Origin: a virus | DNA length: 34,981 nucleotides | Strand: one strand, 5' to 3' | Virus genome (UHGV): UHGV-0117537 | Shown: in pieces, positions 3,823 to 18,699 of the stretch | Position numbering within the stretch: the stretch's first letter is position 1 | Layout: the number at the start of each line of letters is the position of its first letter | The notes under the pieces: model-generated | Databases searched by the model: none | What the model was told of the DNA's origin: nothing | Seen by the model: only the letters and a program-made list of their open reading frames with translations | Translations under genes and position numbers: made by a program

Positions 3823-4413
3823 TTATTTACAGGTCATAATCACTTTAGCGATGATATTAACATCACTGATATTGCACTCTATTTTTTTTGATTTTGACTC
3901 TAGCATTATGCGGTTATTAGGTAACCTCATTAATTCTCGAACAGAATATATACCGTCAATGGCAATCAACCATAACCCATCATCAATCTCATCCACACCT
4001 CGTCTCACGACATAAGTTATATGCTCATGCTCAAGAGCTGAGATATCTTTTAGGTCATTTGGCAATAGTGATAAATCAAAAATTAAATAGCCATTATCAA
4101 TCAGTTTGCCATCGATAATTTTCTCTCTGGTCAGGCTTACAACATGCGATTTTGCATCCACATACATGGGGCCTTCAGCTGCGGATAGCCAACGAAGTGA
4201 AATACCTGTTTCTAACGCACATTGAATTATCCAATCAGCGGGGAATGTATCTCTCATATATCGATTAGCTAACGTGCTTTTAGAAACACCAAGATGTTCA
4301 GCCAAAGCCTGTCGTGTCGTAAAGCCATAAGCTTCGACTAATCGCTCAATCGCAGCCTTACCACCTTTATTGGGATTTATTTTGATCTCACTTGGGTACT
4401 TTGATGTTGACAT
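3823..4413 (-). CDS. cI: Prophage immunity repressor, 186 CI-like (HTH N-terminal domain)
   Basis: 196 aa; N-terminal HTH (FTTRQALAEHLGVSKSTLANRYMR); divergent from Apl/CII-like genes; size matches 186-type CI rather than 99-aa P2 C. Confidence 0.75.
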   Translation of the reverse strand: MSTSKYPSEIKINPNKGGKAAIERLVEAYGFTTRQALAEHLGVSKSTLANRYMRDTFPADWIIQCALETGISLRWLSAAEGPMYVDAKSHVVSLTREKIIDGKLIDNGYLIFDLSLLPNDLKDISALEHEHITYVVRRGVDEIDDGLWLIAIDGIYSVRELMRLPNNRIMLESKSKKIECNISDVNIIAKVIMTCK

Positions 4414-4508: not shown

Positions 4509-4730
4509 ATGACCCCTAACATTTCAATAACTCTGAATACGCCACATGTCACAATTGAGCGTTATAGCGAACTTACTGGTCTTTCAATCGACACAATTAA
4601 CGATATGCTGGCTGACGGTCGCATCCCTCGGCATCGCCTTCGGAAAGACAAGAAAAGAGAAAAGGTGATGATCAACCTTGCTGCTCTTACCGTTGATGCA
4701 CTTACTGATTGCAATGTTGTATTCAACTAG
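4509..4730 (+). CDS. apl: Apl/Cox-like excisionase/early regulator
   Basis: 74 aa from internal ATG of ORF 4392-4730; small HTH protein ([38 protein letters not shown]) first in rightward early operon, directly opposite repressor. Confidence 0.6.
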
Positions 4731-4762
4731 TTCCATTTTGGGATACATCAGGGGTGTCGACC

Positions 4763-5272
4763 ATGTTTGATTACCAAGTTTCCAAACATCCACATTTTGA
4801 TGAAGCCTGTCGTGCATTCGCACTGCGCCACAACCTGGTGCAACTGGCAGAACGTGCAGGCATGAATGTGCAGATTCTGCGGAACAAGCTGAACCCAGCT
4901 CAACCTCATTTATTAACCGCACCAGATATCTGGCTACTTACCGATCTGACTGAAGATTCAACGCTGGTAGACGGTTTTCTGGCACAGATTCATTGTCTGC
5001 CATGTGTACCGATTAATGAGGTGGCAAAAGAGAAACTGCCACATTACGTCATGAGTGCAACCGCAGAGATCGGGCGTGTTGCTGCAGGTGCGGTATCTGG
5101 CGATGTAAAAACCAGTGCAGGTCGTCGTAATGCTATCAGCAGCATTAACTCTGTAACACGACTGATGGCGTTGGCTGCTGTTTCATTGCAGGCCCGTTTA
5201 CAGGCTAACCCTGCGATGGCGAGTGCAGTTGATACCGTGGCTGGCCTCGGTGCTTCATTCGGTTTGCTGTGA
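4763..5272 (+). CDS. cII: CII-like lysogeny establishment regulator (186 CII-like)
   Basis: 169 aa from internal ATG of ORF 4709-5272; sequence [44 protein letters not shown] recalled as 186 CII-like; position after apl. Confidence 0.7.
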
Positions 5273-6336: not shown

Positions 6337-6563
6337 TGGCTGATGCAATGGATCTCGTACAGCAGCGAGTTGAAGAAGAACGCCAGCGTCATATCCGTGC
6401 TGCCCGTGCCAAAACGCCGGGCGTGTCCCGCGTGCTTTGCGTTGAGTGTGAAGCGCCAATTCCGCCAGCACGCCGCCGTGCCATTCCGGGTGTGCAACTT
6501 TGCATTACCTGTCAGGAAATCGCAGAGCTGAAAGGCAAACATTACAACGGAGGTGCTGTATGA
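6336..6563 (+). CDS. TraR/DksA-family C4 zinc-finger protein (P2 orf82-like)
   Basis: 75 aa with CxxC...CxxC (CVECEAPIPPARRRAIPGVQLCITCQ) characteristic of TraR/DksA zinc fingers found in P2-like early operons. Confidence 0.75.
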   Translation: MADAMDLVQQRVEEERQRHIRAARAKTPGVSRVLCVECEAPIPPARRRAIPGVQLCITCQEIAELKGKHYNGGAV

Positions 6564-7417
6564 GCACCATCCTGAAATGGGCGGGAAATAAAACCGCCAT
6601 TATGTCCGAACTGAAAAAACATCTTCCTGCTGGTCCGCGACTGGTTGAACCTTTCGCGGGTTCCTGTGCAGTGATGATGGAGACGGATTACCCCAGCTAT
6701 CTTGTTGCGGATATTAATCCTGATTTAATCAACCTCTATAAAAAGGTTGCTGCTGATTGTGAGGCGTTTATATCTCGTGCCAGAGCTTTATTTGAGGAAG
6801 CAAACAGAGAGGTGGCTTATTACAACATAAGGCAGGAGTTTAATTACTCCACTGAAATTACTGATTTCATGAAAGCGGTATATTTTCTGTATCTCAATCG
6901 TCATGGTTACCGTGGGTTATGTCGTTATAACAAGAGCGGGCATTTCAACATTCCATACGGTAATTATAAAAATCCGTATTTCCCTGAAAAAGAAATTCGC
7001 GCATTTGCAGAGAAAGCCCAGCGAGCAACGTTTATCTGCGCCAGCTTTGATGAAACGCTGGCGATGCTGCAGGTGGGGGATGTGGTGTATTGCGATCCGC
7101 CTTATGACGGTACGTTTTCCGGCTATCACACTGATGGTTTCACTGAAGATGACCAGTATCACCTGGCATCTGTTCTTGAATATCGATCATCAGAAGGTCA
7201 TCCAGTCATTGTTTCTAACAGTGACACATCCCTGATCCGTTCGCTGTATCGAAATTTCACTCACCACTACATCAAGGCAAAACGCAGCATCGGCGTGTCG
7301 GCTGGCGAGAGTAAATCTGCAACAGAAATCATTGCTGTTTCCGGGGCGCGCTGCTGGGTGGGATTTGATCCTTCGTGTGGCGTGGATAGTTCTGCTGTGT
7401 ACGAGGTGCGTGTATGA
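6560..7417 (+). CDS. dam: DNA adenine methyltransferase (Dam-like, N6-adenine)
   Basis: 285 aa from internal ATG of ORF 6500-7417; N-terminal KWAGNK and FAGSCAV (AdoMet-binding) motifs and catalytic DPPY ([12 protein letters not shown]). Confidence 0.85.
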
Positions 7418-9828
7418 GTCATGACGATATGAGCAACTCTAGCGGCTTTAACGAGGCCGCTGTAGCATTTTCATGGAACGGCCCGAAAAAGGCCATTAAC
7501 CCTTATCTGGACCCGGCGGAAGTTGCGCTGGAGTCTGCACTTTCAAACCTGATCACTCTGTACGCTGCCGATAATGAGCAGGAACAGCTGCGCCGCGATG
7601 CACTGAGTGAGCAGGTCTGGGAGCGTTATTTCTTTAATGAATCCCGTGATCCTGTCCAGCGTGAAATGGAGCAGGATAAGCTCATTAGTCGGGCAAAGCT
7701 GGCGCATGAACAGCAGCGTTTTAACCCGCACATGGTCATTCTGGCGGACGTCAGCGCCCAGCCTTCCCACATCAGCAAGCCGCTGATGCAACGTATCGAA
7801 TATTTCAGCAGCCTGGGCAGGCCAAAGGCTTATTCTCGCTATCTGCGTGAGACGATTAAGCCATGTCTGGAACGACTGGAGCATGTACGCGACAGTCAGC
7901 TATCCACTTCTTTTCGCTTTATGGCAAGCCATGAAGGGCTGGACGGCCTGCTGATCCTGCCTGAAATGAGTCAGGATCAGGTGAAACGCCTGTCTACCCT
8001 TGTCGCTGCGCATATGAGCATGTGTCTTGATGCCGCTTGTGGTGATTTGTACGCCACCGATGATGTTAAGCCAGAAGAAATCCGCAAGACATGGGAAAGG
8101 GTGGCAGCGGAAACCCTACGTTTGGATGTCATCCCGCCTGCGTTTGAGCAACTCCGTCGGAAAAGAAACCGCCGTAAACCAGTGCCCTATGAACTCATTC
8201 CGGGCTCGCTGGCGCGTATGCTGTGCGCCGACTGGTGGTATCGGAAATTGTGGAAGATGCGTTGCGAATGGCGGGAAGAGCAGTTGCGTGCTGTCTGCCT
8301 GGTCAGCAAAAAAGCATCTCCCTATGTCAGCTATGAAGCTGTGATGCATAAACGTGAGCAGCGCCGTAAGTCGCTGGAGTTTTTCCGTTCTCATGAACTG
8401 GTGAACGAAGACGGAGACGCGCTGGATATGGAAGATGTGGTAAACGCCAGCTGCAGCAACCCGGCGCATCGCCGCAATGAGATGATGGCCTGTGTTAAAG
8501 GTCTGGAGCTTATCGCGGAAATGCGCGGTGACTGCGCCGTTTTCTACACCATTACCTGTCCGTCACGTTTCCATTCCACGCTAAATAACGGCAGACCCAA
8601 CCCGACCTGGAAAAACGCGACGGTAAGACAAAGCAGCGATTATCTGGTCGGTATGTTTGCTGCATTTCGTAAGGCGATGCACAAAGCCGGGTTGCGCTGG
8701 TATGGCGTGCGGGTGGCTGAGCCGCATCACGACGGCACAGTTCACTGGCACCTGTTGTGTTTCATGCGCAAAAAAGACCGCCGCGCCATTACTGCATTGT
8801 TGCGTAAGTTTGCTATCCGTGAAGACCGCGAGGAGCTGGGCAATAACACGGGGCCGCGCTTTAAGTCTGAGCTGATTAACCCGCGCAAAGGAACGCCGAC
8901 AAGCTACATAGCGAAATACATCAGTAAGAACATTGACGGGCGTGGTCTGGCTGGCGAGATCAGCAAGGAAACGGGTAAATCTCTTCGTGATAACGCTGAA
9001 TACGTGAATGCCTGGGCGTCTTTGCATCGTGTTCAGCAATTCCGCTTCTTTGGTATTCCGGGGCGTCAGGCTTACCGTGAACTGCGATTGCTGGCTGGTC
9101 AGGCGGCAAGGCAGCAGGGTGACAAAAAAGCAGGTGTGCCGGTACTGGATAACCCGCGCCTTGATGCCATTCTGGCTGCTGCTGATGCTGGTTGTTTTGC
9201 CACCTATATCATGAAGCAGGGAGGTGTACTGGTTCCCCGTAAATATCACCTCATCAGAACTGCTTATGAAATTAACGAAGAGCCGACCGCCTATGGCGAT
9301 CACGGTATTCGTATTTATGGCATCTGGTCACCCATTGCAGAGGGCAAGATCTGCACTCATGCAGTGAAGTGGAAAATGGTTCGTAAGGCCGTTGACGTTC
9401 AGGAGGCGGCAGCCGACCAGGGCGCTTGCGCCCCTTGGACTCGTGGCAATAACTGTCCCCTTGCTGAAAATTTGAACCAACAAGGGAAAGACAAATCAGC
9501 TGATGGGGACTCCAGAACGGATATTACCCGTATGAATGACAAGGAGTTGCACGATTACCTGCACAGTATGAGCAAAAAAGAGCGCCGGGAACTGGCTGCA
9601 AGGTTACGCCAGGTGAAACCGAAACGGCGTAAAGACTACAAACAGCGAATTACAGACCATCAGCGACAGCAGCTCGTCTATGAACTGAAGTCCAGGGGAT
9701 TTGATGGCAGCGAGAAAGAAGTCGATTTGCTCCTTCGCGGCGGCAGTATTCCGTCAGGAGCAGGCCTGCGTATCTTCTATCGGAACCAGCGTCTGAAGGA
9801 AGATGATAAGTGGCGGAACCTGTATTAA
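7414..9828 (+). CDS. A: Rolling-circle replication initiation endonuclease (P2 gpA-like)
   Basis: 804 aa; conserved HWH-type metal motif (TVHWHLLCF) and active-site tyrosine region ([14 protein letters not shown]) typical of P2 A / phiX174 A family; position after early operon. Confidence 0.88.
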
Positions 9829-9980: not shown

Positions 9981-10169
9981 ATGCAGGACTATTTTTTGGA
10001 GTCTTTGAAGCTTCAGCGCATTGATTTTTTTCTTAAGCTTGTAGCGGCTAGTGAGTGTAGTGATGAAGAGAAGGGGCTGGCTCTGCAGTGGGTTTCTGAA
10101 TTGACTGATGAACTTATGGCAAAAATCAGAAGTCACGAATACAACCGCTCAATGGATGTCATCAGCTGA
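9981..10169 (+). CDS. Small SOS-controlled protein (possible N-terminal part of a Tum-like antirepressor)
   Basis: 62-aa ORF preceded by AGGAGG RBS and the LexA box; immediately followed by the DinI-like ORF. Confidence 0.5.
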   Translation: MQDYFLESLKLQRIDFFLKLVAASECSDEEKGLALQWVSELTDELMAKIRSHEYNRSMDVIS

Positions 10170-10179
10170 GGTGACTTTT

Positions 10180-10413
10180 ATGCGCATTGAAATAATGATC
10201 GATAAAGAGCAGAAGATTAGCCAGTCTACCCTGGACGCCCTTGAATCCGAGCTTTACCGCAATCTGCGCCCCCTGTATCCCAAAACGGTAATTCGCATTC
10301 GCAAAGGTAGCTCTAACGGTGTGGAACTAACCGGACTGCAACTGGATGAAGAAAGAAAACAAGTGATGAAAATTATGCAGAAGGTGTGGGAGGACGACAG
10401 CTGGCTGCATTAA
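10180..10413 (+). CDS. DinI-family protein (Tum C-terminal-like / DinI-like)
   Basis: 77 aa from internal ATG of ORF 10108-10413; MRIEIMIDK...SWLH resembles DinI family (MRIEV... start, acidic C-terminus). Confidence 0.75.
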   Translation: MRIEIMIDKEQKISQSTLDALESELYRNLRPLYPKTVIRIRKGSSNGVELTGLQLDEERKQVMKIMQKVWEDDSWLH

Positions 10414-10605
10414 GAAACGTGGCCCCCAGGAGGATTCATTCTGATGGGGGCTAGTTTGGGCAATGAGTGAAATAAGGCGTAAGGTGGGCGGTTATTTTGA
10501 TAAGTGATCGTCCGCTTTGTGTCAGAAGCAGAAGTGGGAGTGTCTGAGACTCTCTAAAAGTTGATGATTCACTTACAAAACCATTTTCCTGATGGATGCT
10601 TACAC

Positions 10606-10941
10606 TTACGAATGATCATTCTGTTTAGTCTTCATGAGAAAATCCCGAATCTTTGCCAAGTTTGAATTTTCGGGGATTGAATCCATGTACGGATCACGCT
10701 CAAACACTAATTGCTCAGATTCAACGAAAGCCTGCCACTCTACTGGGTCTAGCTCAAATCCCATTGCTGTCATATCACTTTCATCTTCCCCCTCGATCCA
10801 GTGGACTAAATAAAACAATTCATCATCAGGAGAATCATCCTCACCATCAACAATATCAACATCGGTTACAGTGATACGTAGGGTGGGATCGATTTTTGAG
10901 ACATAAATTCCTAACTGTGGTATAGGGGGAATATTGTTCAT
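10606..10941 (-). CDS. Hypothetical acidic protein (orphan, accessory)
   Basis: 111-aa ORF on opposite strand to surrounding genes; strongly acidic (runs of D/E: DGEDDSPDDE, EGEDESD); no family recognised. Confidence 0.45.
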   Translation of the reverse strand: MNNIPPIPQLGIYVSKIDPTLRITVTDVDIVDGEDDSPDDELFYLVHWIEGEDESDMTAMGFELDPVEWQAFVESEQLVFERDPYMDSIPENSNLAKIRDFLMKTKQNDHS

Positions 10942-11320
10942 GGAAACTCCTTTTATTGGTGTTTGCTATTTGAATAAAAATACGCCAAACAGAGTGTTAA
11001 CTGTGAATATGGAAAGAATCGTTGTAAGTACCCCGCTTAGGTGTCCCATTCTATTTTAGAGGTTCTCGTGCATATGGATTATGTTATCTGAAAGCTAACT
11101 TCCGCTTCCCGTTCACAGCGAACATTCATCTTTGTAAACCCGTATGATCCGTTTTTCAAGTGGCCATTCAGATACGGATTTTCACTTCCTTGACAGTGCA
11201 TGACTATGCTGCATGAAATCGCATGATCGATTGAGGATCGTCTTTGCTCAGATCCGCCAGAACTGGCGGGCTTTTGCTCATGTCATGCATGTGCATGAAA
11301 ACCACTGCATAAAGCGGGCA

Positions 11321-11340
11321 GGCGTGGCGGGGATACGAGC
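11321..11340. other. Candidate cos (cohesive-end) site
   Basis: GGCGTGGCGGGGA... resembles the 19-nt cohesive ends recalled for 186/P2 (GGCG(T/A)GGCGGGGAAAGCA); GC-rich island in otherwise AT-rich intergenic region between A-side genes and portal side. Confidence 0.3.
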
Positions 11341-11415
11341 GCGCGGAAGCAGTTTCACATGTAATTCGATTGGTGTAATCTAAACTACAACTTAAGAAAA
11401 GAGAATGAGTAAACC

Positions 11416-13155
11416 ATGGAATTGCACGCATATACTAGAACCATATCAGAATTACTTTCGGTTAATAGAAAATATGTTGTCCCAAGATTTCAGCGAGAAT
11501 ATTCTTGGGTAAAAGAACAAATTAATGAGCTTTGGTATGATGTAATATCTAATATCAAATTAGAGAATGATTTCACATATTCTAATAATGAGTATTTTAT
11601 TGGTTCTTTAGTTTTAGTTGGAGATGAAACAGGAAGGGAAATGCAAATAGTTGATGGTCAGCAACGACTTACAACTCTTACGATTTTTCTTTCCGTTTTA
11701 TGTGAGGCGTTCAAGCTAAACAATCAATCAGATTTAGCATCTGCTCTATTTGAAAATTATATTGAAGGTCGTGATGATGATGGTAAGAAATTTTTTAAGC
11801 TAATAAATGAAACACCTAAGCCTTTTTTTCAGAAAAATATCCAACACCTTAATAAGGCAGATGACGCACCCCAGACACAAGAGGAGCGAAATCTCTTGTC
11901 TGCATATAAGGAAATTACATCGTTAGCCTCAAAGGAAAAATTGGGAAAGCATTTTTCAGTCGAAATTAATACTGAAGATAATTATTCCAGTGTATTAAAA
12001 GCAATTAGGGATCAGATTTTAAGATTTCTTAAGATAATTTTTATTACTGTTAATGAAGAGGACGAGGCGTATACAATATTTGAAACATTAAATGCGAGAG
12101 GGATGAATTTAAGTTTTGTAGATCTAATTAAAAATAAATTATTTAAAGCGTTAAACAACCCTCATCCAAATGATGATGCAAAAGATAATTGGAAGGCTAT
12201 ACGTACTACTTTAATGCAAAGAAATGGTGTAGGGACTTTTGAAAATTTCATGAGGCACTGGTGGGTGTCGAAGTATGCTTACGTGAGCAATGAAAATCTT
12301 TATAAGTCCTTTATTGGAAAATGGCGTAAGGGGGAAATTAATCCGGTAACCTTTATTGAAGAATTGAAACAGGATGCCGAATTGTATGTACGCTTGTCAT
12401 CTCCTTTGGAGAGTGATTATCCACAAATGGAAGATAAACAGATATTCCATTCGTTGAATGCAATTAGGCTATTTGGTATAACGCAGTGTAGACCTTTTTT
12501 ATTAGCTTTACTAAAGGCAAAACAGCAAAGGAGATTGCGTCAATGTGATCTTTTAAAAGCAGTTAAATATATTGAAAATTTTCATTTTGTATTTAATGCG
12601 ATATGTTCATTAAGGCCGTCAGGGATAGAAGGTGCATATTCTAAGGCCGCAAGAGCAATAAATTCACCAAATGCTACAAAAGTAACTAATGGTACAACAA
12701 TTGAACAGTTATGCTTGTTGTTGAGTAACCGCAAGCCAGAAATTTCTGTATTCACTGAAAATTTCAGAGATATATTATTTACTGATGACAACTCCAAGCA
12801 AAAAAGATTGGTCCAATATATTATAAATAAATTTGAAATGGCCCGTCATAATGGAGATGAGTATCGTCCTAATTCTATTTCTTTAGAGCATATAATGCCT
12901 CAAAGTGCTGGCAACGATAAGGAAATAGGAATGATTGGAAATATAATCCCTCTGTCAAAAGAACTTAATGAGCAAGCTGGTAATAAATCATTGGCACAAA
13001 AGCTCTCTATCTATTCACAATCGGAGTTTAGATTGACGGAAGAGTTTATTAGTGAACTTGAAACCATTTACCATAATGAATGGAATCTCCAGTCTATTAT
13101 TCAGAAGACAGATAGAATGGCTGGTGAGGCTTATATGAATATTTGGAGTCATTAA
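11416..13155 (+). CDS. DUF262/DUF1524 (GmrSD/BrxU-like) type IV restriction endonuclease-like protein; candidate anti-phage defence cargo
   Basis: 579 aa; N-terminal DGQQR motif (QIVDGQQRLTTL) diagnostic of DUF262/ParB-like NTPase domain, C-terminal His-Me/HNH-like motif (ISLEHIMPQS) of DUF1524; markedly AT-rich; located between replication gene and portal gene. Confidence 0.72.
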   Translation: MELHAYTRTISELLSVNRKYVVPRFQREYSWVKEQINELWYDVISNIKLENDFTYSNNEYFIGSLVLVGDETGREMQIVDGQQRLTTLTIFLSVLCEAFKLNNQSDLASALFENYIEGRDDDGKKFFKLINETPKPFFQKNIQHLNKADDAPQTQEERNLLSAYKEITSLASKEKLGKHFSVEINTEDNYSSVLKAIRDQILRFLKIIFITVNEEDEAYTIFETLNARGMNLSFVDLIKNKLFKALNNPHPNDDAKDNWKAIRTTLMQRNGVGTFENFMRHWWVSKYAYVSNENLYKSFIGKWRKGEINPVTFIEELKQDAELYVRLSSPLESDYPQMEDKQIFHSLNAIRLFGITQCRPFLLALLKAKQQRRLRQCDLLKAVKYIENFHFVFNAICSLRPSGIEGAYSKAARAINSPNATKVTNGTTIEQLCLLLSNRKPEISVFTENFRDILFTDDNSKQKRLVQYIINKFEMARHNGDEYRPNSISLEHIMPQSAGNDKEIGMIGNIIPLSKELNEQAGNKSLAQKLSIYSQSEFRLTEEFISELETIYHNEWNLQSIIQKTDRMAGEAYMNIWSH

Positions 13156-13160
13156 TAGTT

Positions 13161-13195
13161 AAATGCCCTATTATTATATCAGTAATAGGGCATTT
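13161..13195. terminator. Perfect 13-bp stem hairpin between convergent genes (possible bidirectional terminator)
   Basis: aaatgccctatta / ttatatcag / taatagggcattt; lies between stop of 11416-13155 gene and stop of portal gene; no clear U-tract. Confidence 0.35.
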
Positions 13196-13199
13196 GAAA

Positions 13200-14231
13200 T
13201 TACTCCAACACGTAATTGCCAAATGAAATTATTGGCTCCCCAATCCATTTGTTTAATTCGCATATGAGTTTTTGTAAGGGAATTAACTCGTTTCTTACAA
13301 ATACCTTACTAGCTTTCTCTACATCCCCAAATCCCCCGACATTATTTGGCATTATCCCCATCATTTGCGGCGGCACTCGGTGTGCTGCCATCATGTCATC
13401 GCGGCTGACATTTTTGATATTCAGAAACTCATCCTTTGCCGCAACTTCTGACAAAGGGATGATCTGAAGGCCGTCCTTTTTGCCGTTAGGCGAGTACATA
13501 AACAGGTTGCGGAAGTTGCCTGGACCTTTGGCGCTTTTCATCGCGTTGCGGAGGTTGTTCACATCCTCCTGATTCTGCGCGGCGTCGGTCATGTACATGA
13601 TGAAGCCTGCATGGCTGCCGTTGATGTAATACTTACGGCGGAATAGCGTGGCGGATTCGTTGAGCAGGGCGGATGGAATGGCAGAAAGATAGCCGGGCAG
13701 GCCGTAGATCTCCTGGTTGATGTCCGGTTCCATCAGATGAAAAATGCTGCCTTTCGTGAACTGATACGGCTGGGTTGTCATGCCGTATTGCACAAACCAG
13801 TAGGTATCCAGGTCTAACCCGCGTCGGGTGTATTTTGCCAGCGCAGGCTCAAGGGCGATAACTTCACCGAATCGGTTCGTGCGTTTCTCCAGGTAGGCGT
13901 TACCAAATACCAGATAGTCCTGCACAAAACGCGAAAAAGCCTGCTGGCTGAGCAGCGGATGAGGGATATAGGTACTGGTCAGAATGTTGCACTTTACTGC
14001 AATCGGGGAACTGTGATGCACGGCAGCGCGGAAGGTGCGCGCCAGTCCGTCAAAGCTGACGGGCGGCTCATACCAACGGTCCATCTGTACGCATTCCACA
14101 TAGTCCAGCAGTTCTCGGCGGTCCAGAACAGGAACGGGATCGCCGAAGCTGAATGCTTCGGCTGTAGTCTGGCTTTTAAGCTGGATCTGTTTCGTCGCCG
14201 CAGCGCGGTTCTTCTTACTCTTTCCCATCAA
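13200..14231 (-). CDS. Q: Portal protein (P2 gpQ-like)
   Basis: 343 aa, size and position (adjacent to, and co-oriented with, terminase P) match P2 Q. Confidence 0.9.
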   Translation of the reverse strand: MMGKSKKNRAAATKQIQLKSQTTAEAFSFGDPVPVLDRRELLDYVECVQMDRWYEPPVSFDGLARTFRAAVHHSSPIAVKCNILTSTYIPHPLLSQQAFSRFVQDYLVFGNAYLEKRTNRFGEVIALEPALAKYTRRGLDLDTYWFVQYGMTTQPYQFTKGSIFHLMEPDINQEIYGLPGYLSAIPSALLNESATLFRRKYYINGSHAGFIMYMTDAAQNQEDVNNLRNAMKSAKGPGNFRNLFMYSPNGKKDGLQIIPLSEVAAKDEFLNIKNVSRDDMMAAHRVPPQMMGIMPNNVGGFGDVEKASKVFVRNELIPLQKLICELNKWIGEPIISFGNYVLE

Positions 14232-15994
14232 AAAATCTCCACAATATTGCTGGTATTGGCGGATTCGCCCTGCAGCGGTTCGTTAAACAGTGCGTGCATT
14301 GTTGCCCAGGCCAGATCGGCGTGGCTGGCTTCTTCGCTGCGGCTGGCTTCATAGGTCGGGCGGTTGCCGCTGGCGGTGGTTGCGCGACGGATTGCCATGA
14401 ATGACTGCGCAATGTCGGTGTGTCCGGCGTCAAACTCCAGACGGCGGTGGCTGATAATGTCGTAGGCCTTGAGTACCAGGGCATTTTTAACATTGGGGTT
14501 ATAGACAAACTCCCGGACGGCAGGAAAGAACGCTTTCACGTTCTCATAAACCCCGTGACCAACGCCGGTCGAGTCGATACCGATATACGTAACGTTGTAC
14601 TGTTCGGTGAGTTTTTTGATGGCGTCAGCCTGGGCGCGGAAGTCCATCCCGCGCCACTGGTGACGCTCAAGAATGCGGAACTTACCACCCGGCACGGCTG
14701 GCGGAGCCACCACCACGCATCCGGCACTGTCGCCGTTCTGCGTACCTTTTGCCGGGTCATAACCGATCCACACTTCGCGCCAGCCAAACGGGCGCAGCGC
14801 CAGTGCATGAAAGTCGGTCCAGACTTCCCAGCTGTCCACCATGCACGCCTGTAGCTCGCTGAGCGGAAACACGGACGCGAGATCGTCCACGAACTCACAC
14901 ATCAGCAGGTTCTGGTATTCGTCCGGGCTGTACTCCATGCGCAACTGGTCGAGATCGAACAGGTTACAGCCGCCGCGCACCGCATCTTCCACGGTGACTA
15001 TCTGGCGGTATTGCCCGTCTGCGCACAGCAGGCCGGGGGCCAGATTGCTGTGGGACAGGTCGATGTCCACCTTGTCAGCTTTGTTGCGCCCACGGTTGAA
15101 CAGCGCACCGGACCAGAACGGATAAGCACTGTGGGTCAGACTGGATGGTGTGGAAAAATAGGTCTGCCGCCATTTCTTGTGAATAGCCATACCGGAAGCC
15201 ACTTTGCGTAGCTCCTGAAATTTCGGTATCCAGAAATATTCATCCAGATACAGGTTGCCGTGATAACTCTGGGCCGTGCGGGCATTGGTGCCGAGGAAGT
15301 AAAGCGTGGCCCCGTTAGGAAGCACCATCGGATCGCCTTTCAGCTCCACCTCCACTTCTTTGGCGAAGTCGATGATGTACTGCTTAAAGACGTGGGCCTG
15401 TGCCTTACTGGCGGAAAGGAAAATCTGGTTACGCCCGGTAAGCAGGGCGTCAATCAGGGCTTCACGGGCAAAGTAAAAGGTCGCGCCGATCTGGCGTGAC
15501 TTCAGCAGGTTGCGGATGCGGTTGGTTTTTCCGGCTTCCCACCAGTGGCGCTGGTAGTTGAACATGGAGGAATGGAAGATTTCTTCCAGCTTCTCAATCT
15601 GTTCATCGGTGAAGACATTTTTTTCCGGCTGACGGCGCGGGCCTTTGTTGCGGTTGGCGACGTTAGGGTTTAAGTCGGCTTCGTTGCCGCCATTGTTAAA
15701 CTTGCCGATCCGCGCGTGGCGCTCAGACTGGCGCGCCAGCAGGTCAATCTCTTTGAAATCTTTCCCTTCTTTGTGCTCCTTCATAATGAGCTGGCAGTAG
15801 CGTGCGGCGGTGGTGAGCTGCATCTGATCCAGCGGCCCATAGTCACCCCACTTGTCGCGTTTTTTCCAGCTGTGAACGGTTGCAACTTTCTCGCCCAGCA
15901 TTTCAGCAATGCGGGCTACGCGGTATCCCTGAAAGTACAGCAGCATGGCCTGCCGACGGGGATCGAGATCTGCGGGTGTCAGTGTGGTGTTCAT
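14228..15994 (-). CDS. P: Terminase large (ATPase) subunit (P2 gpP-like)
   Basis: 588 aa; start overlaps Q; size matches P2 P (about 590 aa). Confidence 0.92.
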   Translation of the reverse strand: MNTTLTPADLDPRRQAMLLYFQGYRVARIAEMLGEKVATVHSWKKRDKWGDYGPLDQMQLTTAARYCQLIMKEHKEGKDFKEIDLLARQSERHARIGKFNNGGNEADLNPNVANRNKGPRRQPEKNVFTDEQIEKLEEIFHSSMFNYQRHWWEAGKTNRIRNLLKSRQIGATFYFAREALIDALLTGRNQIFLSASKAQAHVFKQYIIDFAKEVEVELKGDPMVLPNGATLYFLGTNARTAQSYHGNLYLDEYFWIPKFQELRKVASGMAIHKKWRQTYFSTPSSLTHSAYPFWSGALFNRGRNKADKVDIDLSHSNLAPGLLCADGQYRQIVTVEDAVRGGCNLFDLDQLRMEYSPDEYQNLLMCEFVDDLASVFPLSELQACMVDSWEVWTDFHALALRPFGWREVWIGYDPAKGTQNGDSAGCVVVAPPAVPGGKFRILERHQWRGMDFRAQADAIKKLTEQYNVTYIGIDSTGVGHGVYENVKAFFPAVREFVYNPNVKNALVLKAYDIISHRRLEFDAGHTDIAQSFMAIRRATTASGNRPTYEASRSEEASHADLAWATMHALFNEPLQGESANTSNIVEIF

Positions 15995-18048: not shown

Positions 18049-18699
18049 ATGAGCCTGAGTCCCGCACGGCAGCATCGCCTGCGCGTTCAGGCTGAACAGG
18101 CCGCCCGCGAGGGCGGCAGCGTTCGCCACGCGTCGGGCTATGACCTGATGCTGCTGCAACTGGCGGAAGACCGCCGCCGTCTCAAGGGCGTTCAGTCCAC
18201 GGTCAAAAAAGCGGAAATCAAGGTGGAGCTGCTGCCGAAGTACGCCGCCTGGGCGGAGGGTGTCCTGGCTGCCGGAGGCGTTCAACAGGATGACGTGCTG
18301 ATGTACGTGATGCTGTGGCGCATTGATGCCGGAGATTATGCCGGGGCGCTGGAGATCGGGCGTCACGCCCTGCGTCATGGCTGGGTGATGCCGTTAGGTA
18401 ACCGCAACGTGCAGACCGTGCTGGCAGAGGAAATGGCAGATGCAGCCCAGAGCGCAATGATTGCCGCCACCGGCTTTGATGCCGATCTGTTGCTGCAGAC
18501 GCTGGAGCTGACAGACGGTCTGGATATGCCGGACCAGTCACGGGCGCGTCTGCATAAAGCGATTGGCGCTGTCCTGAGTGAAAGCAACCCGGCTTCCGCC
18601 CTTAATCATCTCAACCATGCGTTACAGCTCGATCCCCGCTGTGGCGTGAAAAAAGACAAACAGCAGCTGGAGCGCAGACTGCGCAATGACAGCCGCTGA
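18049..18699 (+). CDS. M: Terminase small/endonuclease subunit (P2 gpM-like)
   Basis: 216 aa, position after N. Confidence 0.8.
   Translation: MSLSPARQHRLRVQAEQAAREGGSVRHASGYDLMLLQLAEDRRRLKGVQSTVKKAEIKVELLPKYAAWAEGVLAAGGVQQDDVLMYVMLWRIDAGDYAGALEIGRHALRHGWVMPLGNRNVQTVLAEEMADAAQSAMIAATGFDADLLLQTLELTDGLDMPDQSRARLHKAIGAVLSESNPASALNHLNHALQLDPRCGVKKDKQQLERRLRNDSR

Follow-up and report, generated by a model that had tools for sequence, protein, structure and literature searches.

The predicted cos site of a Fels-2-type, P2/186-like prophage and the cargo genes on either side of it

Introduction

At the cos site of phage lambda, staggered nicks give rise to 5' cohesive ends, and repeated elements recognised by the small terminase subunit form a cluster to one side of the nicks. 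Phage P2 packages monomeric circles. For cos function, about 125 bp are reportedly enough. A core of approximately 55 bp is common to the cos sites of P2 and its satellite P4 (Ziermann & Calendar 1990, as quoted in PMC5694545, PMC9594776 and PMC3931495). Primary data on the minimal length of cos and on the end that is packaged first were not found in the literature searched. The genome announcement of phage SEN8 gives ggcgtggcggggatacgag as the cos site (PMC5427200), which was assigned by annotation and not by end mapping; the literature searched yielded no physical end data for any phage with the exact 19-nt sequence that is described below.

The DNA next to the cos site of these phages is also known as a place where foreign genes are found. 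The position between cosL and gpQ was suggested to be a hotspot for foreign genes, as summarised in PMC5694545 with reference to Dodd & Egan 1996 and Nakayama et al. 1999, and the retrons Ec67 and Ec86 are described in PMC7826664 (citing Dodd & Egan 1996) as replacing the DNA from cos to a terminator in a 186-related prophage. In the study of Rousset et al. 2022 (PMC9122126), the whole cos-proximal interval from gpA to gpQ is the main defence hotspot of P2, and a 2026 study in NAR (PMC13586616) likewise treated gpA-gpQ as one interval and as the main P2 defence hotspot.

The DNA analysed here, hereafter called the window, is a stretch of 34,981 bp representing the virus genome UHGV-0117537. 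Like the Ec67 and Ec86 retrons and the P2 hotspot, it carries foreign DNA of the defence type between cos and the packaging genes; unlike the retron insertions, its cargo is a single-gene enzyme of the GmrSD family. The feature as such is already known, the 19-nt sequence having been published and the cargo slot described since 1996. Whereas the published analyses of the P2 hotspot take gpA-gpQ as one interval, two slots split by cos are distinguished here. Neither this split nor the linkage of the cargo with the C-terminal tail of the portal protein was found in PMC9122126 or PMC13586616.

Results and Discussion

Gene setting

The window is a P2/186-like prophage of the Fels-2 type (Table 1). 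Besides the portal protein and both terminase subunits, it encodes the scaffold gpO, the capsid protein gpN and gpL, so that the P2-type set of head and packaging genes is complete, and it has a module of the Tum/DinI type. The site described below lies where the P2 family has its cos, i.e. between the gpA side and the gpQ homologue, and the cognate gpM and gpP homologues are found in the same window. The locus of the 662-aa ATPase is a probable third position for defence cargo in this prophage.

Table 1. Features of the window and of the predicted cos region, with their positions
Feature	Position	Strand	Basis or remark
Integrase	688-1743
AAA_15/AAA_21 ATPase, 662 aa	1814-3802	-	OLD/Gabija/AbiEii-like type; between integrase and CI repressor
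CI	3823-4413
CII	4709-5272
Dam-class (D12) methyltransferase	6500-7417
gpA	7414-9828
DinI	10108-10413
A-side cargo slot, DinI to cos	10414-11195	.	782 bp in the window
111-aa ORF, unknown function	10606-10941	-	phrog_17127, 2e-70
Conserved cos island	11196-11346	.	about -125 to +25 from the first base of the cohesive end; hypervariable flanks
Distal box cluster: TGCAT 11197, TGCAT 11210, GCATG 11221	11197-11225	+	GCAT at -123, -110, -100
GC-rich inverted repeat CCGCCAG-AA-CTGGCGG	11254-11269	+	repeat search and terminator scan
Proximal TGCAT boxes 11286, 11292 and 11306, then AAAACC	11286-11310	+
Predicted 19-nt 5' cohesive end GGCGTGGCGGGGATACGAG	11321-11339	+	homology to annotated cos sites
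CGCGCG	11340-11345	+	no other sequence is conserved beyond the cohesive end towards the portal gene
Portal-side cargo cassette, GC 0.33	11347-13199	+	GmrSD-family gene and hairpin terminator
GmrSD-family type IV restriction-like gene, 579 aa	11416-13155	+	Pfam, PADLOC
AT-rich hairpin terminator ATGCCCTATTA-N9-TAATAGGGCAT	13163-13193		between the convergent GmrSD and portal genes
Last 23 codons of portal gene and stop (KLICELNKWIGEPIISFGNYVLE*)	13200-13271	-	AT-rich
Portal, gpQ homologue	13200-14231	-	Pfam Phage_portal
Large terminase subunit, gpP homologue	14228-15994	-	Pfam Terminase_6N, Terminase_6C, Terminase_5
Small terminase subunit, gpM homologue	18049-18699	+	Pfam Phage_term_smal PF05944, 1.6e-40

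The predicted cohesive end

A preliminary description of the window, made from the sequence alone, had pointed to GGCGTGGCGGGGA at positions 11321-11333 as resembling the cohesive end of 186 and P2, and had named an alignment to the cos regions of these two phages as the way to check it. This alignment bears the resemblance out. The segment beginning with these bases, GGCGTGGCGGGGATACGAG, is aligned with positions 1-19 in the records of 186, P2, PsP3 and P4, of which those of 186, P2 and PsP3 start at annotated cohesive ends and that of P4 starts with the same 19-mer as P2. Furthermore, the SEN8 record is linearised exactly at GGCGTGGCGGGGATACGAG, its positions 1-19 being annotated as 'putative cos site'. 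The first 13 of the 19 bases are identical with those of 186, and all 19 with those of SEN8 and Fels-2; the P2-family core GGCG(A/T)GGCGGGGA is found within this G+C-rich end of 19 nt. With up to three mismatches allowed, the 34,981 bp of the window hold no second match to the 19-mer, and 100 shuffles gave no match at all.

A conserved island around the cut site

The conservation of the site was followed in 80 IMG/VR loci (L011-L090) selected for a portal gene at least 93% identical to that of the window (93-99%). Exactly one cos core, located downstream of the portal gene, is present in 76 of them, and it always lies between the gpA side and the portal. Seventy-two of these 76 relatives have the identical 19-mer, and the remaining four differ from it by one base. 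In a profile of the per-column information of 73 distinct relatives, anchored on the cos cut site, the signal leaves zero at -126/-125 and is back to zero at +26/+27; given these sharp edges, the conserved island comprises 151 bp, and the interval 11200-11345 that had been singled out beforehand almost coincides with it. Matches in the phage database cover positions 11195-11350.

Two open reading frames overlapping the island (11204-11431 on the minus strand and 11213-11383 on the plus strand) were considered as a possible reason for its conservation and rejected, there being no codon periodicity and the conservation ending inside both of them. In the record of Yersinia phage MLG42 (L006 3518-3661), as in other deposited records, an open reading frame over the cos island is annotated as a hypothetical protein; such hypothetical proteins are probably spurious. 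A scan of positions 10400-11500 against Rfam (E <= 1) returned a single chance match to a snoRNA outside the island, and, since no Rfam family overlaps it, the island does not correspond to any known RNA gene.

In terms of annotation, these data fix where the prophage has its packaging site and where its virion ends are predicted to lie. The natural variation among the relatives amounts to a large series of deletions and insertions, by which the DNA that a P2-family terminase can require is confined to about 125 bp towards gpA and, towards the portal gene, about 7 bp past the overhang, an extent of cos that is useful for the design of cosmids and transducing particles.

Comparison with described cos sites

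For comparison with the described sites, the right and left ends of the reference phage records were joined and then aligned with the window. The sequence at the cut is ...GTGCATGAAAACCACTGCATAAAGCGGGCA/GGCGTGGCGGGGATACGAG/CGCGCG in the window and ...CTGCATTAAAACCGACCCATAAAGTGGGCA/GGCGTGGCGGGGAAAGCAT/TGCGCG in 186, the slashes marking the borders of the cohesive end. The pattern TGCAT(T/G)AAAACC...AAAG.GGGC.GGCG.GGCGGGGA......GCGCG of the window is aligned without gaps with P2, P4 and 186, and the core of approximately 55 bp known from the P2 family is present. The sequence GTGCAT(G/T)AAAACC is invariant in a six-way alignment, and GCGCG follows the overhang without change in P2, 186, P4, SEN8, Fels-2 and the window. 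The tetranucleotide GCAT occurs at -123/-122, -110, -100 and -28 in P2, 186, P4 and the window, while the sequence between these positions has diverged; in PsP3, the corresponding positions are -119, -110, -100 and -28. Thus 186, PsP3, P2 and P4 resemble the window in the GCAT register, in TGCAT(T/G)AAAACC, AAAG.GGGC and the GCGCG that follows the overhang, as well as in the placement of cos between the gpA side and the portal gene. They differ from it in the last 6 nt of the overhang (ATACGAG in the window versus AAAGCAT or AAAGCAC), and in 186, P2 and PsP3 only about 170-180 bp with a terminator separate cos from the portal gene.

The cos sites of Fels-2, SEN8, Yersinia phage MLG42 and Escherichia phage 500465-1 are nearly identical to that of the window. 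In SEN8 and Fels-2 (Felsduovirus), the identity over the island from -125 to +25 is approximately 87-90%, and the interval from cos to the portal gene holds cargo genes as it does in the window; however, the cargo is a different one on both sides of cos, and the extra TGCAT boxes that the window has at -35 and -15 are lacking. No Psu homologue was present in any of the 119 IMG/VR loci with the exact 19-mer, i.e. no P4-like satellite with this cos was found among them.

Recognition elements within the island

The pentanucleotide TGCAT begins at 11197, 11210, 11286, 11292 and 11306 on the plus strand and at 11285 on the minus strand, with a GCATG variant at 11221. It is rare in the window as a whole (75 found versus 136 expected from shuffles), and against an expectation of 0.23 derived from this background of the window itself, the six hits on both strands within the 114 bp from 11197 to 11310 correspond to a Poisson P of 1.5e-7. 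All P2-family cos sites share the box at -29/-28 (11292), TGCAT being found at -29 in P2, 186, P4, PsP3 and the window. The repeats of the tgcatga/catgcatg type had earlier been proposed as possible packaging or terminase-binding elements; their occurrence at the same distances from the cut as in P2, 186, P4 and PsP3 is in keeping with such a role. The distal GCAT boxes are candidates for binding sites of the small terminase subunit, and the gpM homologue would presumably be the protein that reads them.

The GC-rich inverted repeat sits between the two box clusters, at about -60, and is directly followed by CTTTTGC. Among the relatives, its stem is kept and its loop is variable. A dyad at about -60 is likewise found in 186 and in P4, where the sequence differs (CCGCGCC..GGCGCGG) and the symmetry is kept; in P2 the dyad is weak. 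On the plus strand, the inverted repeat looks like an intrinsic terminator for rightward transcription of the gpA/DinI operon. Inside cos, it could be either a terminator or a protein-binding site.

The outline is similar to that of cosB and cosN of lambda in that recognition elements lie on one side of the nicking site. There is, however, no sequence similarity with lambda cos, the overhang of which has 12 nt versus the 19 nt predicted here. The analogy with cosB is also incomplete because no IHF consensus lies between the box clusters (WATCARNNNNTTR was searched for on both strands of 11150-11400).

Two GATC sites within the island (-96 and -85; 11225-11239) are kept in more than 70 of the 76 relatives. 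This is a trait of the Fels-2 type, whereas the cos regions of P2, 186 and P4 lack these sites and PsP3 has a single GATC at another position. The D12-class (Dam-like) adenine methyltransferase is encoded just upstream of gpA. By analogy with the pac site of P1, a methylation-sensitive step of packaging acting via these GATC sites is conceivable.

Cargo between cos and the portal gene

The gene that follows the island encodes a protein with the apparent architecture of a GmrSD enzyme in a single polypeptide, namely a predicted N-terminal DUF262/ParB-like domain with DGQQR and a predicted C-terminal DUF1524 nuclease domain. GmrSD_N (PF03235) was matched by residues 10-243 (1.2e-38) and GmrSD_C (PF07510) by residues 442-569 (2.4e-15), and the motif VDGQQRLTT can be read at about 11650-11676. 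Among the PADLOC models, the best match was HEC-06 (1e-92), and Orf5, SspE and mREase_IV were matched as well. The GC content around the gene is 0.29-0.38 versus 0.52-0.60 in the backbone. A consensus scan of 11347-11415 called no promoter for the gene; TTCACA-N16-TAATCT at 11354-11381 is a weak promoter candidate read by eye. A distant-mode search with the cargo (11347-13199) found no match among 50,697 deposited phage records. Its closest copies are found in the same slot of E. coli chromosomes (93% identity) and in one IMG/VR contig (L011).

That the predicted cos lies on the A side of the defence gene had been recognised in the preliminary description, and relative to the GmrSD gene the island is indeed found towards gpA. 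The further view taken there, that the place between cos and the portal gene is an unusual one for cargo, does not hold. Cargo is carried there by 74 of the 76 close relatives, whose cohesive end lies 518-3039 bp away from the portal stop; only in the other two, with a distance of 159-161 bp, is the slot empty as in P2 and 186. The corresponding distance in the window is 1860 bp. A second, independent sample of 85 loci, picked by the 19-mer alone and having portal identities of 67-98%, comprised 76 occupied and nine empty loci. Across the samples, the cargo is 0.5-3.5 kb long. Annotated phage records agree with this, since a gene for a 565-aa hypothetical protein lies between cos and the portal gene in Fels-2, a hypothetical gene and an HNH endonuclease in SEN8, and a TIR-domain protein in phage 500465-1. 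In Fels-2-type phages, a defence gene in this place is therefore the default, with about 90-97% of the relatives having cargo there, and the supposed anomaly of the cargo position is removed.

The cargo of 77 loci falls into 49 portal-side clusters. Nearly all of the larger open reading frames run from cos towards the portal gene, and the GC content of the occupied clusters is 0.31-0.42. Matches were obtained to GmrSD (4) and to retron-type reverse transcriptases (4, including RT-Toprim I-C), furthermore to PIN_12, TIR, SIR2, SEFIR, SieB and Schlafen/AlbA_2, and also to AIPR, the Cap4 nuclease domain, DprA, AAA_15/21 and KAP NTPase. With its hypervariable content between conserved flanks, the locus is part of the gpA-gpQ hotspot, and, judged by these sequence matches, its cargo seems rich in anti-phage systems.

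The slot on the A side and its combinations with the portal-side cargo

A second stretch of variable content extends from the DinI stop codon to the near edge of the island. It is empty, with a length of 82-83 bp, in 19 of 68 relatives and measures 0.2-4.4 kb in the rest. The 111-aa open reading frame that the window has there matched nothing in Pfam or PADLOC. Many E. coli genomes, that of E2348/69 among them, have the A-side cassette at 99-100% identity. When both sides were clustered, 25 A-side and 49 portal-side clusters were found in 67 combinations in 72 loci; 14 A-side clusters occur next to several different portal-side cargos, as do 16 portal-side clusters next to several different A-side ones.

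The same picture was obtained with complete E. coli genomes, among which no record covers 80% of the region 10400-13300. Some of them, for example E2348/69, match 10400-11345/11356 at 99-100%, others match 11193-13300 at 93%, and the breakpoints fall at the edges of the island. The combination of A-side and portal-side cargo seen in the window is present in no complete E. coli genome searched. In the homologous cos-GmrSD-portal region of one E. coli genome (NZ_CP019944.1), an IS2 element is inserted.

Assignment of the site and alternative explanations

Taken together, the homology to annotated cohesive ends, the bounded island of conservation and the matching terminase genes in the window make it highly probable that positions 11196-11346 are the cos site of this Fels-2-type, P2/186-like prophage. 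By homology, the two terminase subunits would recognise the site during lytic growth and nick it in a staggered manner, with the top-strand nick 5' of 11321 and the bottom-strand nick opposite 11339/11340, and the virion DNA would have 5' overhangs of 19 nt with the sequence GGCGTGGCGGGGATACGAG. The conservation pattern suggests that essentially all information for recognition is to be found towards gpA, in the GCAT boxes at -123/-110/-100, the dyad at about -60 and TGCAT-AAAACC at -29, and that on the portal side only the 6-7 bp past the overhang (CGCGCG) would be constrained. As the outer flanks need almost nothing, the DNA on either side of the 151-bp island would be replaceable, and the island would come to lie between two cargo slots.

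Many P2-like prophages found in genomes are cryptic, and the site might in the same way be a dead relic, i.e. a homologue of cos in a defective prophage that is no longer cut or used. This is unlikely, because neither the 19-mer nor the island as a whole departs from the consensus of the relatives, because the portal, both terminase, scaffold, capsid and gpL genes are intact open reading frames with full-length Pfam matches, and because integrase, CI, CII and gpA are present too. It is also hard to place the true ends beside the 3' end of the portal gene, at about 13160-13200, and to take the sequence at 11321 for a fortuitous or duplicated partial copy. The cohesive ends of P2, 186 and PsP3 do lie 168-179 bp from the portal stop, but the stretch 13160-13200 contains nothing cos-like, only the AT-rich hairpin of the terminator, the 19-mer has no near match elsewhere in the window, and in the relatives the single cos core shifts with the length of the cargo, from 159 to 3039 bp away from the portal stop. 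Such a location of the ends is scarcely credible.

The alternative that the island is kept mainly as a homology arm or recombination site, or as a terminator or insulator between the slots, packaging specificity residing elsewhere, could draw on the E. coli matches that break exactly at its edges, on the free reassortment of the slots and on the terminator-like hairpin within the island. Against it stands the same architecture in P2, 186 and P4, the records of which put the cohesive ends exactly here, P4 having nothing else in common with P2 (PMC9122126); moreover, a pure homology arm would not hold short boxes in register across diverged sequence. This explanation is considered very improbable. 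A role as recombination pivot is compatible with function as a cos site, from which it would probably follow.

The C-terminal tail of the portal protein

The portal-side cassette borders the portal gene at its far end, and here the nucleotide homology of the portal gene to that of the relatives ends 36-157 nt before the stop codon; the exception is L011, which has the same cargo as the window. The variable part corresponds to the last 22-29 residues of the protein, following the conserved ...VFVRNELIPLQ. Fifty-six versions of this tail were found among the 80 relatives, each tied to one cargo cluster. The identity of the tails is 48% between cargo clusters and 97% within them, as compared with 98.4% for the portal body (the preceding 200 residues), and their GC content is 0.33 versus 0.51 in the body, correlating with that of the cargo (r = 0.57). 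In the two empty loci, the tail resembles the one seen in P2 and 186 and has a GC content of 0.47-0.49. Being AT-rich and co-inherited with the cargo, the portal tail is effectively the right arm of the cassette.

The tail diversity is most simply read as hitch-hiking, in which a gene end under weak constraint is carried along next to a locus that selection keeps diverse. The tail could also be functionally tuned, for example at an interface of the portal with the terminase or with DNA, next to the DNA end that bears the cargo. If the tails are specific to the cassettes, each defence cassette would have travelled for long with a private portal C-terminus. It is therefore tentatively proposed, as a possibility on which we put somewhat less than even weight, that the gpA-gpQ hotspot consists of two independently reassorting slots with the cos island as their pivot, and that portal-side cassettes carry their own portal tail. 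These observations on the two slots and the portal tail are of possible interest for the study of the exchange of defence cassettes between phages. Throughout the diversity of the tails, the pattern ELN.W.....I.F..Y is kept.
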